NCBI GenBank assembly: GCA_903825355.1
Contig: CAIKAH010000008.1
Span: forward strand, 12,048-76,047
Direction: 5' to 3'
DNA: 64,000 nucleotides
Source: an uncultured bacterium
GTDB lineage: Bacteria > Babelota > Babeliae > Babelales > RVW-14
Shown here: piece after piece, positions 75 through 14,295 of the stretch
Layout: each line of letters begins with the position of its first letter
Position numbering within the stretch: the stretch's first letter is position 1
Notes under the pieces: generated by a model
The model's input: only the letters and a program-made list of their open reading frames with translations
What the model was told of the DNA's origin: nothing
The model's database searches: none
Translations under genes and position numbers: made by a program

Positions 75-2240
75 CTATTTAAACGACCCACTAAAATCTT
101 TGTAGAGGCTATCAAAATTGATGGTACCTTTGCCAACCTTGTAGTTGGCATTTCGTACAATCAACCGCCCTGGGGTATTGAGCACCAAGCCGCCGTCAGC
201 CTGCACACGCACTTGATCAAGCTGCATAGCAGCAGAGCCATCATCTGCCAACTGCAAGCCGTTAACCGTACCACGCCAGTCAAAGGTGAGATTGCGGCAC
301 AAGAATAAGGTAGCATCAGCTAAGATGGCAAAGGGCTGTGTTGAAGCATAGGTAAACCGGTTTGGCCCCACCATGGTTACATCATCTACCAGCTGTATGC
401 CGCCAGTGCTAAAGGTAAAGTCTGCTTCCTGCACCCATTTTACGCCACGCATTTTAATGGTGCTCGTGTTACTGGTGCAGCGGATGTTATTACCACGAAT
501 ACCTTTTAAAATAATGCCATCAAGCAGCAGGGTTGAGTTTTCACCTTGCAGCACAAGCGAGCCGCTTGTGCCCAAATCAAGCACTTGGCCCGTGCCACGC
601 AAAATGGTATTGCCTTCAAACGTCCATTGGTAATCAAGCACTTCATTGCGCGCTAAACTGAGCATCGTCTTATCGCCAAACAGCAACGAGGAGCCAACAC
701 CAAATGAAAAATGTTTTGGCGAGACATCACGCAAAATCATGTTCTGGGTGGTAGCATGCACCCCATCAGAAATAATAAACACCGGCTCATCGGTAAGCGT
801 AAAACCAAGAAAGTTAGTGTTACCATCAATCACCACATCAAAATTTTGCGTAGAGCCATCAAGTGCAGGATACACATAAAATTTGCGATACGGCGCCACG
901 ATGGCGTATTTTTGCAACAACGAGTCTGACCGGTAGTTGTGAAAGGTGACTGAGTCTTGTTTGACCGAGCGAATGTCACCATTGCCCAAAATAGTAATGT
1001 ATTTGCCGGTTGGATCTGTAATGAGAATTGGCTGAATATTATTCTGGTCAAGTGTTGCAAGCGTGTCGTAGGTGAGCGATACACGGTCAACGGTCAAATG
1101 GCCATTGGTGGTACCATTCTCACTGTCAGCAAACCGCAAGATGTTGCCTTTTGTCACGACAGTGGAACTGCCGTTGATATACCACGTCCCCGAAACAACG
1201 GTGTATGAATCGTCCATTTCAATGACCACATCAGAAAGCTTCAAGGTTGCATCATTAGCAACACGAATCTTACCAAGCAAATTGCCTAGGGGATCGGTGT
1301 TATCACCGATGCCTTTAATTTGCACGCTTGAAATACTGAGCGTGGCTCCTTGCGCTACAATAATTTCACCACCCGGGCTTTCTGCCGTGCCCCGCAAATC
1401 CAGCACATTGCCATTGCCATTAATCTGCCCAATATCTTCAAACGTCCACGTCCCTTGCAAACTGACAGCACTATTAAACTGAATATCGAGGGCGCTGGAC
1501 CAGGAGATATTACCTGTCCATGTTGCATCCTGCCCACCAAGCAGTAAGCGCCTGCTGTTAAGGTGAATGGCACCATCACCCGTGATAATGGCACTGTCGC
1601 CAAGCCGCAAATCATCTTGCAAAATAAAAAGACCGCCGTTGAGCGCAATGTTGGTATTTACGGTGTTTTGCACAGCAACTAAAAAGATCGTATTTTCATC
1701 GGCGATAGAAAGTTTATTCGCCCCAAAAAACAGCGGCTGCCCCCGCATGATGCTCTGCCCTTCTTGCGCTTGTACCGTCACCCCGCTCAGCCCCCCGGGG
1801 TTGGCGATCATCGCCCCAATGCCATTAGGGCTATCTGCACCTAATGTAATCGTACCACCAGTATTTCTTGCTGGCTGCAGAACTCCATTTAAATTCATCT
1901 GTGCATTGAAATAGTTGTACGTGCCAAAATCAAAATAAATAGGATTGCCCTCCACAATGCCCCCACCGGTATTGGTCAAATTACCACGATAAAACGTGAC
2001 GCCACCAGTTGGTTTGATATTCATGTACGAATTTGAACTAATCAAAAAGCTTGATTGTTGATTGCCAAAAACAGTCTGCCCTACGGGGGAGGCATGGGCG
2101 GGGGAAACAATAGAAGAGATCATTACATATATAAATGCAGCGGTATAAAAACTGCTCCTCCTGAGCCTAACCACACTATACACGTCAATATTTTTGCCAA
2201 ATATGCAACTTCTAATTTGTATTATTTTTATAGTTTTCAT
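75..2240 (-). CDS. secreted beta-solenoid-like repeat protein, long-form paralog (721 aa)
   Basis: Long uninterrupted ORF. Hydrophobic signal-like segment FYTAAFIYVMISSIVSPAHA followed by SP. G/N/T/S-rich repetitive sequence. Carries two copies of the family module (WTFEDIGQINGNGNVLDLRG...VQIKGIG and WTFEGNTILRGTGQVLDLGT...IILKGIRG). Collinear similarity to the 558-aa ORF and the N-terminal part of the 1363-aa ORF. AAGGAAA Shine-Dalgarno upstream of the ATG at 2240. Confidence 0.85.
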   Translation of the reverse strand: MKTIKIIQIRSCIFGKNIDVYSVVRLRRSSFYTAAFIYVMISSIVSPAHASPVGQTVFGNQQSSFLISSNSYMNIKPTGGVTFYRGNLTNTGGGIVEGNPIYFDFGTYNYFNAQMNLNGVLQPARNTGGTITLGADSPNGIGAMIANPGGLSGVTVQAQEGQSIMRGQPLFFGANKLSIADENTIFLVAVQNTVNTNIALNGGLFILQDDLRLGDSAIITGDGAIHLNSRRLLLGGQDATWTGNISWSSALDIQFNSAVSLQGTWTFEDIGQINGNGNVLDLRGTAESPGGEIIVAQGATLSISSVQIKGIGDNTDPLGNLLGKIRVANDATLKLSDVVIEMDDSYTVVSGTWYINGSSTVVTKGNILRFADSENGTTNGHLTVDRVSLTYDTLATLDQNNIQPILITDPTGKYITILGNGDIRSVKQDSVTFHNYRSDSLLQKYAIVAPYRKFYVYPALDGSTQNFDVVIDGNTNFLGFTLTDEPVFIISDGVHATTQNMILRDVSPKHFSFGVGSSLLFGDKTMLSLARNEVLDYQWTFEGNTILRGTGQVLDLGTSGSLVLQGENSTLLLDGIILKGIRGNNIRCTSNTSTIKMRGVKWVQEADFTFSTGGIQLVDDVTMVGPNRFTYASTQPFAILADATLFLCRNLTFDWRGTVNGLQLADDGSAAMQLDQVRVQADGGLVLNTPGRLIVRNANYKVGKGTINFDSLYKDFSGSFK

Positions 2241-2263
2241 AGAGTAGTTTTCCTTTGAACTGC

Positions 2264-13200: not shown

Positions 13201-14295
13201 GGTAATACTGCCGCTACCACCAGCAGGCACAATAACAGTACCTGGATTTGTTACAGCACCCATTGGGTCAATCCACAACGTAGTACCATCAACAATCAAG
13301 CTACCGTTATCACCGACAATAAAATTATTGCTTCCAAGCCCTAATACCGTTGGTCCTTGCACAAGCAGTTGACCACTAAGCGTGTACTGGTTATCAAATT
13401 GCAATGTAGTGCTTGATGTTTTTACAATAGCTGAAGTGTCAACAAAACCCAACGCACCAGATCCATCACCATCACCACTACCAATCCCTTTGACCACAAT
13501 ATTATTAAGCTGTAACGCAGAAGATAGCCCAACAAAAAGTGCTCCGCCGCTTGAGAGATCAAGCACACAGCCTTTGCCGTTAATCACGTTGTTACCATTG
13601 CCACCACTAAGCGGACCTGCAAAATTCCATTGACCAGAAAGATGTAGCGACCCGTTCAAGGTAAGATCGAGTGCTTGATAAAAAGCAAGATTACCATCCC
13701 ATAGACCAGTGTATGTGCTGCCAAGATCAAGACGGCGATTGTTGAGCAGAACAACCCCGTCACCAACAAGACGAACATTGTCTGCTAGCGCAAGATTATC
13801 TGCTAGTGAAAGAACCCCACCATGCATCATAATATCTTGCCCTAAAACACTTTGTATATTCAATGTAAGCCCAGCGTTGTCATTATGAAGCACTATTGGA
13901 GCAGCAAAAGAAGGTTGACCCGAAATGGTATTTTCACCAAAAACAGTCATGCCTTGTAATGTAGTTCCTGGCTCTACGTAAAAACTACCACCTCCATACA
14001 ACTTCAGAGAATCAGTACCAGATGGATCAAAAGACCCCGTTAGTCGAGCATCAAGACCACGTGAACTCAATACCCCATTATCAAAAGCAACTGGTGCGCC
14101 ACTAACAACCCCTCCTGACAGCAACTCCAACGTACCGTCAATACTCATGTTGCTAGAAGTAATATTTAACTGTGTGCCAGATGCAATACTGATCTTGGCA
14201 TCTTTACTACCAAAATCTAAACTTGCTTTTAACCCGCTACAAGTCGTGCAAAGCAGCAAACTTGCGAGCAGAAGCACGCTATGGACTCTCTTCAT
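10204..14295 (-). CDS. giant secreted beta-solenoid-like repeat protein (1363 aa), founding member of the paralog cluster
   Basis: Strong Shine-Dalgarno (GAAGGAGGAG) before the ATG. Signal peptide MKRVHSVLLLASLLLCTTCSG. N-terminal about 460 aa collinear with the 721/558-aa paralogs (QWNFAGPLSGGNGNNVINGKGCVLDLSSGG...NIVVKGIGSG at 13480-13629). Lys/Arg-rich linker at residues about 768-867. Distinct G/N/V-rich C-terminal half. Confidence 0.85.
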   Translation of the reverse strand: MKRVHSVLLLASLLLCTTCSGLKASLDFGSKDAKISIASGTQLNITSSNMSIDGTLELLSGGVVSGAPVAFDNGVLSSRGLDARLTGSFDPSGTDSLKLYGGGSFYVEPGTTLQGMTVFGENTISGQPSFAAPIVLHNDNAGLTLNIQSVLGQDIMMHGGVLSLADNLALADNVRLVGDGVVLLNNRRLDLGSTYTGLWDGNLAFYQALDLTLNGSLHLSGQWNFAGPLSGGNGNNVINGKGCVLDLSSGGALFVGLSSALQLNNIVVKGIGSGDGDGSGALGFVDTSAIVKTSSTTLQFDNQYTLSGQLLVQGPTVLGLGSNNFIVGDNGSLIVDGTTLWIDPMGAVTNPGTVIVPAGGSGSITYLNGGTIKFAQNHGLSTFQLVSNTLTNTNIVLDSSVTLDPGQRLVVSGQVSIDGNGSYIEFMDPNHSQLILQPGSTLTLKNIEFRNLKSNTLDLRATATDIAVAQGTNPVDETKNAFSSARIKINQNVEWKLDQDITFTNGTIEVVNTDAETGVLNVFVMSSEKTPKTFYVAPLLDPFGGITLDHVQTFSLNHNTLQLENVTFRGLRSVQAMVDDVASPAIALSGNASIDQDAGLPTGVRAVDIAAITNNIDIFVENENNRLMIRNSVPASEAAQIQASNNATIALPTYTEFILNNNIYFGDSPINHLMVSFSTTQTTQPMVTITSDPGIQLTSANGIAHLEFTDQNVMLNLARSGAFSIDSNGMLSYNNLFIQNFPIQQLANDIVTSSVALGGAGMDASFVRSPKYIKRHKRVNTLQLKRIAEGNVRVPTRKAIKNSKKNEPVLVAGRVTKRSKKSPQAVAASKVHANVLSAKSYLHDLDEKRAKTRQAVIDELAPRAATRSVEGVVANVLQPAFYSPAIAGLSVSTAILNATQIQTAPFTGGMTVINGTVGGYDATANSYRGFRALAGTNVLGQGATLYFYDTQELNGDGNAARLSFQGGTDSAPNLMVVGSPAVTSNNAVLTIDCTADSLSGLGLAQNTNLEIRVVGNGQLKLGGTLVLPDGCNVRITQDRTAKAAEPVVLLDGFNVQFMGADATRARFIVDAAVAFGSGSNGLRVTGVGSYIIGENADFAPSTNMLIFGSDVPEHGDQNGVNIIIDKGARVNLGAGTAINSRYGQFNYFINSIIDLNGGVLAMNSRGTTTLPANGFVNAVVFGKDGGINFTLGAGDAAGKLVIGHNVRRGGGIAPSNLNVPGAATPLPIAWDGRKGQFTTDGTGQVRFVDLEAGYDKSVTGVLANPDALKVYGSLQAGALALPAIQQNAGFSNTVYVNGDRTAVRRADGLVVAQLPAGASVSAEAADGSGVGGSDANGNPFNIDMANQKDLNGVGVTFTEADRV

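Follow-up and report, generated by a model that had tools for sequence, protein, structure and literature searches.

What is a cluster of five related, apparently exported proteins and a single outer-membrane beta-barrel for, and do the barrel and its neighbours work together? The question is raised by a 64 kb stretch of DNA from an uncultured bacterium (contig CAIKAH010000008.1; 'the window'), the first 14.3 kb of which carry such a cluster ('the locus'). The best matches carry the names Candidatus Dependentiae, Babeliales or candidate division TM6, and the organism belongs to the Dependentiae (TM6). Members of this widespread phylum, almost none of which is in culture, live inside protists as obligate parasites, and the locus bears on how they attach to hosts, enter hosts and build their envelope. 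It is among the few large non-housekeeping gene sets whose order is conserved across the phylum. We propose that it may be a conserved, Dependentiae-specific export module for beta-helix surface proteins, with the outer-membrane protein (OMP) OMP559 as dedicated translocator, anchor or both, a reading to which we give about an even chance of being correct. It is favoured because of the fold match of the OMP, the tight linkage of one type of family gene (E-type) to the OMP gene, and a natural fusion, P0192, of a family module to the barrel; the features of the candidate cargo (a beta-helix fold, a low cysteine content and a motif at the mature N-terminus) and the conservation of the locus beside ribosomal genes, rpoA and mdh in a reduced genome point the same way.

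Five paralogues of two domain types

The first 14.3 kb contain seven open reading frames (ORFs). Six are transcribed from the minus strand, in the order E1363, OMP559, D558, C373, B324, A721; the seventh, a plus-strand gene for a 581-aa protein, separates C373 from B324. The initial annotation had described five paralogous secreted proteins and a 559-aa OMP ending in SLNYDF. All ORFs were recovered at the coordinates it gave, and the composition (rich in G, N, T, S and V), the motifs (W-x-F-x-G...G-x-G-x-V-L-D-L) and the signal-peptide-like N-termini are present. Signal peptides were judged by eye from an n-region, a hydrophobic core and a small-residue, cleavage-type end; after adjustment of some start codons, such N-termini were seen on all six minus-strand proteins and on the 581-aa protein.

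The paralogy, too, stood up to an all-vs-all comparison. BLASTP linked A721 to D558 (E value 4e-65) and to E1363 (3e-31), and B324 to C373 (3e-29), with weaker links between B324 and A721 (5e-8) and between C373 and D558 (3e-5). A profile built from the alignment of 54 A721 orthologues (the A-type profile) matched all five proteins, with E values of 1e-280, 4e-90, 6e-71, 3e-34 and 4e-21, and no further ORF within the 64 kb. The five proteins are one paralogous family, with similarity far above chance.

Mapping on this profile added a distinction between two related beta-helix domain types, the N-domain and the C-domain. The N-domain is found in A721, D558 and E1363, and is all that E1363 has in common with the other two; the C-domain is present in A721, partly present in D558, and the sole domain of B324 and C373. 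The two types are linked by an internal duplication (residues 516-624 of A721 match 209-315 of D558, BLASTP E value 7e-11). By hhalign, the N-terminal 450 residues of E1363 match the A-type profile at 2e-71, and its C-terminal 500 residues or so only weakly (5e-4, probability 31%).

D558 and its close orthologues stop at about position 570 of the A-type profile, while a D-like protein of a distant relative (L005, 6805-8874; 689 aa) has a complete C-domain; in the lineage of the window, D558 is followed by C373, a C-type gene of its own. Such an arrangement may have arisen when one gene split in two, or by truncation and a later duplication. In some Dependentiae proteins, the C-domain module is joined to WD40 beta-propeller domains (L005 20081-22159; L019 9370-13950; P0227), which suggests that it is a reusable surface or interaction unit.

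Two further features concern the mature proteins. Their cysteine content is low (0.2 to 1.2%), and A- and E-types have a mature N-terminal motif in common, (I/V)-x-F-G-S-(K/R)-x-S-x-I, which a strict pattern detects in 33 of the 54 A-types and in 10 of the 13 E-types. A low cysteine content and such a common motif are typical of proteins that pass a narrow barrel in the unfolded state, as in type V secretion.

Predicted fold and family placement of the paralogues

An AlphaFold2 (AF2) model was made for A721 only, from the 54-sequence alignment; the other four paralogues were assigned by profile homology. The model has a predicted local distance difference test score (pLDDT) of 86 and shows short strands in two all-beta domains, with a beta-helix up to the C-terminus. 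All 50 matches listed by Foldseek against the PDB were right-handed parallel beta-helix or beta-solenoid proteins, at weak scores (best E value 0.0097, template modelling (TM) score at most 0.25). They included two-domain PL6 alginate lyases, chondroitinase B, the epimerase AlgG and phage tailspikes or depolymerases, as well as the adhesins or autotransporter passengers Ag43, Hbp, Vag8 and PfbA. The prediction supports a right-handed parallel beta-helix (pectate-lyase-like) as the fold class of A721, with no specific family. This agrees with the beta-solenoid nature guessed at in the initial annotation, which the profile homology extends to the other four proteins.

Profile searches gave little beyond the fold class. 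Among the 54 A721 orthologues, Beta_helix (PF13229) was matched by three (2.8e-4) and Pectate_lyase_5 by two (4e-6); B324 gave a weak match to Pectate_lyase_5 (0.0077). No Pfam or NCBIfam model reached its cutoff on any of the five paralogues or OMP559. A profile search of PDB sequences gave no real match for the A-type family or for the OMP family, the OMP profile retrieving only low-complexity, K/E-rich sequences.

These results bear on the possibility that the beta-helix proteins are secreted glycan-degrading enzymes (pectate/alginate-lyase or glycosidase-like) acting on host or prey glycans, and not adhesins. Such a function concerns the cargo and would fit whichever export route is used. 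The best structural matches include PL6 alginate lyases, chondroitinase B, AlgG and the phage depolymerases, and the weak Pectate_lyase_5 and Beta_helix matches agree with them. The structural matches are all weak, however, and Ag43, Hbp, PfbA and Vag8 appear equally among them; no catalytic-family profile exceeded its threshold, and the domain Pectate_lyase_5 has itself been described as adhesive. In the A-type alignment, G, N, D, W and F make up most of the conserved columns, and these are structural positions. We consider an enzymatic role very unlikely.

Known families of secreted beta-helix proteins were also considered. Autotransporter, TPS (Haemagg_act), POTRA and Omp85/ShlB profiles had no match on the five paralogues or OMP559, and the C-termini of all five paralogues lack a terminal aromatic beta-signal. 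A classical autotransporter (type Va) was rejected for want of an Autotransporter profile match and of a C-terminal translocator, the sole exception being P0192, in another genome. Two-partner secretion (type Vb) was rejected in the absence of a POTRA/Omp85 transporter and of a TPS domain. The chlamydial Pmp family was rejected as well: GGA[ILV] occurs 0 to 1 times per protein and FxxN at the frequency expected from shuffled sequences; the Chlam_PMP repeat profile (PF02415) matches 1 of the 54 A721 orthologues, at an E value of 0.053. The failure of the initial annotation to place the genes among autotransporters, Pmps or TPS proteins therefore holds as far as confident profile matches on the six proteins go; it does not extend to the fold of the OMP, which matches known channels.

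OMP559 as a predicted FapF-like barrel

That OMP559 is a beta-barrel, as first annotated, is borne out by AF2 prediction. The model, made from 29 sequences (pLDDT 78, predicted TM score 0.72), starts with a signal peptide and a disordered basic stretch; a helix (residues 42-72) and a barrel with helical insertions follow, the barrel running to the C-terminal Phe. A near-invariant segment ends about ten residues ahead of strand 1.

The top 20 Foldseek matches of the model were all either FapF or the COG4313 channel Pput2725 (4rl8), with E values from 1.5e-12 to 1e-9 and TM scores normalised by the target (TMt) of 0.68 to 0.79. FapF had the best E value (1.5e-12; TMt 0.75-0.78), and Pput2725 reached TMt 0.77-0.79. 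Lower scores were obtained for autotransporter barrels (NalP, EspP, BrkA and Hbp; TMt about 0.5, E values about 1e-6) and for FadL-type channels (TMt about 0.33, 1e-7), BamA being marginal (TMt 0.15-0.21). By these scores, the predicted structure matches the FapF/COG4313 class of 12-stranded channels at the level of the fold. FapF is a 12-stranded barrel that has been shown experimentally to be the secretion channel for unfolded amyloid subunits of Pseudomonas (PMC5557850), and the match suggests a secretion route. The window also holds an LpxC gene (38066-38911, minus strand, E value 5e-78), so the lineage keeps at least part of lipid A synthesis; this fits the presence of a true outer membrane in which the barrel protein could sit.

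With 423 representatives at E ≤ 1e-3, the OMP family is both large and widespread. Its N-terminal extension varies between genomes from about 30 to about 560 residues and is usually extremely rich in K, E, R and H, and helical. Among the homologues examined (P0081, P0069, P0077, P0116, P0128 and P0144), some extensions are perfect tandem repeats (KEHKVKEHKVKKEKEH...); others are S/T-rich repeats with an amphipathic FFxxIKxxIKNSVRWV motif.

Such extensions raise the alternative that OMP559 is a structural tether or spacer, its charged helix spanning the periplasm in place of Lpp, Pal, OmpA or OmpM, and that the beta-helix proteins form an attached surface or periplasmic coat. These four known tethers were not found in ten Dependentiae genomes (bioRxiv 10.1101/2021.05.31.446380), and the size and spread of the OMP family, like the composition and tandem repeats of its extensions, would suit a structural protein. 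Against it, Pfam searches revealed no peptidoglycan-binding domain (SLH, OmpA_C or LysM), and extensions of 30 to 560 residues are hard to square with a fixed periplasmic spacer. A tether also leaves unexplained both the beta-helix nature of the partner genes and the P0192 fusion. It fits an anchoring role of OMP559 and conflicts with a translocating one; we hold it to be quite unlikely.

Linkage of the family to the barrel gene

The window was compared with 19 other loci; 17 of these 20 loci, the window included, had enough DNA upstream of the OMP gene. An E-type gene (1180 to 1440 aa) lies immediately upstream of the OMP gene in 15 of the 17, and in 14 of those 15 the gap is 8 to 62 nt. In the window it is 15 nt, and the gap from OMP559 to D558 is 19 to 85 nt depending on the start codon; wider gaps separate D558 from C373 (250 nt) and B324 from A721 (about 170 to 250 nt). 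The juxtaposition persists at OMPs only 27% identical to OMP559. In the two loci without an upstream E-type gene, family members stand directly downstream of the OMP gene, and at least one family member is adjacent to it in 18 of the 20 loci. A B-type gene is directly upstream of the A-type gene wherever the latter is found. The set usually adjoins mdh, dcd and the rpoA/L17 end of the ribosomal cluster. This phylum-wide synteny strongly supports the earlier proposal, made from the sequence of one locus, that the six genes form a thematic unit.

Close relatives have 1:1 orthologues in the same order: the C373 orthologue in L001 is 72% identical, and D558 orthologues occupy the same position in L001, L006 and L010. 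The paralogues are old 1:1 orthologue lineages, their order fixed between genomes that are 40 to 60% identical. This argues that they are old, differentiated and under purifying selection, and it favours conserved distinct roles over antigenic variation. The suggestion of antigenic diversity in the initial annotation is not upheld, and an antigenic-variation cassette was rejected, because stable orthologues in a fixed order are found. The public metagenome-assembled genomes that carry loci L009, L011, L012, L016 and L018 are labelled 'uncultured Pseudomonadota bacterium', probably a taxonomic mislabel.

A natural fusion of a family module to the barrel

One divergent contig (L019) encodes a protein, P0192, in which the two components are covalently joined. 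A signal peptide is followed by a family module (profile E value 1e-19), a charged helix, the conserved pre-strand segment and the barrel (3e-105); there is no second, internal signal peptide. The contig has two tandem OMP paralogues, the second being the fused one, and then four family members of 229, 227, 1259 and 1526 aa, the long ones consisting of three tandem pairs of N and C modules. P0192 is not a simple assembly chimera, since its N-terminal part is only 49% identical to that of its neighbour.

Proposed function and its alternatives

What we infer is threefold: the barrel would translocate the beta-helix proteins or anchor them, these proteins would be located at the surface, and they would have a role in host attachment. 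In the scheme that we propose, all components would be exported by Sec, and OMP559 would be inserted by a BAM-type pathway through its C-terminal aromatic signal. The beta-helix proteins, still unfolded, would be recognised at the periplasmic face, the E-type first, as it would be co-translated from the same operon; this large protein, encoded directly upstream, would be the tightest partner of OMP559. They would then pass through the FapF-like barrel, or be anchored to it, and the beta-helix would fold outside the cell. Such a system would amount to a split autotransporter, or to a two-partner-like system in which a FapF-type barrel takes the place of an Omp85/POTRA protein, and its likely role would be attachment to, or entry into, the protist host.

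Several points weigh against this reading. P0192 is the sole fusion among 166 OMP-family sequences and comes from one contig. The mature N-terminal motif of the A- and E-types is missing from the B- and C-types. OMP559 is twice the size of the FapF barrel, with large insertions, and its N-terminal helix has no clear heptad pattern (best a/d hydrophobic fraction 0.56). At the level of sequence, no Pfam family was found beyond chance at E ≤ 1 for any of the 29 OMP orthologues, and the OMP profile retrieved no FapF or COG4313 chain at E ≤ 10 from the PDB sequences. Beta-helix enzymes, moreover, are classic cargo of type II secretion systems (T2SS) in other bacteria. A conserved T2SS with two copies of GspD is present in Dependentiae, which import most of their metabolites (PMC4776705), and COG4313 channels such as Pput2725 are implicated in the uptake of hydrophobic small molecules (PMC4493636).

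The last of these points lead to another explanation: OMP559 would be a general or hydrophobic-substrate uptake channel (COG4313/FadL-like) or a major porin, the beta-helix proteins would leave by another route, for example the T2SS, or stay in the periplasm, and the adjacency of the genes would reflect envelope co-regulation. The COG4313 match is as good as that of FapF (TMt 0.79), FadL-type channels match as well (1e-7), and translocation by OMP559 is, after all, what we infer. Coincidental co-regulation, however, poorly explains the juxtaposition of E-type and OMP genes at 8 to 62 nt in 14 of 15 loci, and it accounts no better for the adjacency of family members in 18 of 20 loci or for the covalent fusion of module and barrel. 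Nor has the OMP family any detectable sequence similarity to COG4313 or Pfam models. We regard an uptake channel or porin as unlikely, and retain the export module as the preferred reading.

A broader version of the export module can be put forward, tentatively and with some doubt: the locus may represent an unrecognised branch of outer-membrane secretion, in which a FapF-fold barrel with a charged N-terminal helix is the common translocator and anchor of several separately encoded beta-helix exoproteins, forms the core machinery of the phylum for host attachment or entry, and may double as the missing tether. If the barrel does export or anchor its neighbours, the known role of FapF-type channels would widen from amyloid secretion in Pseudomonas to the general export of beta-helix exoproteins, and FapF-like channels and autotransporters would be joined by an evolutionary intermediate. 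The system would also offer concrete surface targets for studying, enriching or labelling Dependentiae. The locus should interest specialists of secretion systems and of symbiosis.

Gene calls, the embedded gene and the rest of the window

The features are collected in Table 1. Some start codons deserve comment. The real start of D558 is probably the Met at nt 8423 (Met23), where the signal peptide begins, which gives 536 aa. The true start of A721 is probably about 25 to 30 codons downstream of the called one, because a public protein 98% identical to it has 692 aa. A public protein identical to OMP559 is annotated from Met4 (556 aa). A promoter and terminator scan of the locus gave no useful signal above shuffle expectation.

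Table 1. Features of the locus and of the fusion protein P0192; nucleotide positions are those of the window unless a locus is named
Feature	Position (nt)	Strand	Length or residues	Description
E1363	10204-14295	-	1363 aa	E-type family member with signal peptide
E1363 mature N-terminal motif				conserved; L-D-F-G-S-K-D-A-K-I
E1363 N-domain	12886-14223	-	25-470	homologous to A721 55-518
E1363 linker	11716-12003	-	~765-860	K/R-rich
E1363 second domain		-	870-1363	G/N/T-rich
OMP559	8509-10188	-	559 aa	predicted outer-membrane beta-barrel, ends SLNYDF
OMP559 N-terminal extension	9973-10119	-	24-72	K/R/H/E-rich, helical
OMP559 pre-strand segment	9931-9969	-	74-86	near-invariant G-K-[YF]-A-D-L-Y-K-S-P-A-W (alignment)
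OMP559 barrel	8512-9903	-	96-559	AF2 model; strand 1 from residue 96
OMP559 PTGKK motif			340-344	near-invariant (alignment)
OMP559 C-terminal aromatic signal				...NYDF
D558	6813-8489	-	558 aa	D-type family member; covers A-type profile positions 156-570
C373	5441-6562	-	373 aa	C-type; signal peptide and single C-domain-type module (profile positions 495-674)
581-aa protein	3603-5348	+	581 aa	not a family member; candidate eukaryote-like deubiquitinase
B324	2410-3384	-	324 aa	B-type; signal peptide and single C-domain-type module (profile positions 478-676)
A721	75-2240	-	721 aa	A-type family member with signal peptide
A721 mature N-terminal motif				V-F-G-N-Q-Q-S-S-F
A721 N beta-helix domain	960-2081	-	54-427	AF2 model
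A721 linker		-	428-450	disordered (AF2 model)
A721 C beta-helix domain	78-890	-	451-721	AF2 model
P0192	L019 1552-3975		807 aa	module-barrel fusion on a divergent contig

The plus-strand gene stands apart from the family. Its product has a signal-peptide-like N-terminus from about Met12, two RanBP2/NZF-type zinc fingers (residues 42-65 and 99-125), a helical middle rich in A, E and R, and then a USP/UCH catalytic Cys box. The zinc fingers match PDB sequences of Nup153, ZRANB2, Npl4 and TAB3, and the zinc-finger and UCH matches are the exception to the otherwise sub-threshold Pfam and NCBIfam results. On these grounds, the protein is a candidate eukaryote-like deubiquitinase effector. A UCH gene is found at the same position in the close relatives L001 and L002 only, and is absent from the more distant loci.

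Beyond the locus, the window carries housekeeping genes, namely those of the ribosomal operon, rpoA, mdh, dcd, LpxC, YidC, a penicillin-binding protein and RecD2. Two ORFs among these genes may possibly encode further lineage-specific or effector proteins, one of 992 aa with only a weak ankyrin-repeat match (49648-52626, plus strand) and one of 799 aa with no Pfam match (43595-45994, minus strand).

Comparison with known systems

We found no description of the locus in the literature searched on Dependentiae outer-membrane proteins, beta-helix proteins, adhesins or secretion systems; the genome papers published on this phylum speak only of Sec, of T2SS/type IV pilus genes and of surface antigens that they do not specify.

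In FapF, a trimeric periplasmic coiled coil at the N-terminus is followed by a linker and then by a plug helix ahead of strand 1, and PTG motifs are conserved; its structures are PDB 5o65, 5o67 and 5o68, and its barrel was termed autotransporter-like by its authors (PMC5557850). OMP559 has the same order of parts (signal peptide, helical extension, conserved segment or linker before strand 1, barrel, C-terminal aromatic residue) and a conserved PTG motif, and both barrels are encoded beside Sec-dependent, repeat-rich, beta-forming candidate cargo. The differences are substantial, however. There is no detectable sequence similarity between the two; OMP559 is about 150 aa longer, with large helical insertions (residues 112-185 and 231-303), and it has a highly charged helix at its N-terminus. 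None of the seven genes in the locus matches FapA-E homologues or the C39 peptidase FapD, and the candidate cargo consists of large globular beta-helix proteins of 300 to 1400 aa, whereas the Fap cargo consists of amyloid subunits.

The COG4313 channels (Pput2725, PDB 4rl8; SphA; TcpY) match the fold as well as FapF does, and they too have an N-terminal segment ahead of strand 1, which in Pput2725 occludes the lumen (PMC4493636). The mature COG4313 proteins, however, have 270 to 320 aa and no periplasmic helical extension, and there is no sequence match to OMP559.

With type V secretion, the locus shares the pairing of a Sec-exported, cysteine-poor beta-helix exoprotein with a barrel, in the same polypeptide or an adjacent gene. 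Autotransporter barrels match OMP559, the passengers of Ag43, Hbp and Vag8 match A721, and P0192 has the domain order of type Va. It differs from type Va in that the five paralogues have no C-terminal barrel and in that OMP559 is closer to FapF/COG4313 than to Va barrels. The adjacency of exoprotein and barrel genes seen in type Vb is found here as well, but here up to five separate cargo genes go with a single barrel gene. The Pmps offer another likeness, that of paralogous candidate beta-helix surface proteins in a bacterium that is obligately intracellular and has a reduced genome, although the present family has neither the Pmp motifs nor a fused autotransporter domain.

By our analysis, the locus appears closest in logic to a type V or FapF-type export pair, yet it lacks the features that define membership of each. 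What is new is the combination of beta-helix exoproteins with a FapF-fold barrel and a separate, multi-gene cargo, conserved in all 20 Dependentiae/TM6-type loci examined.

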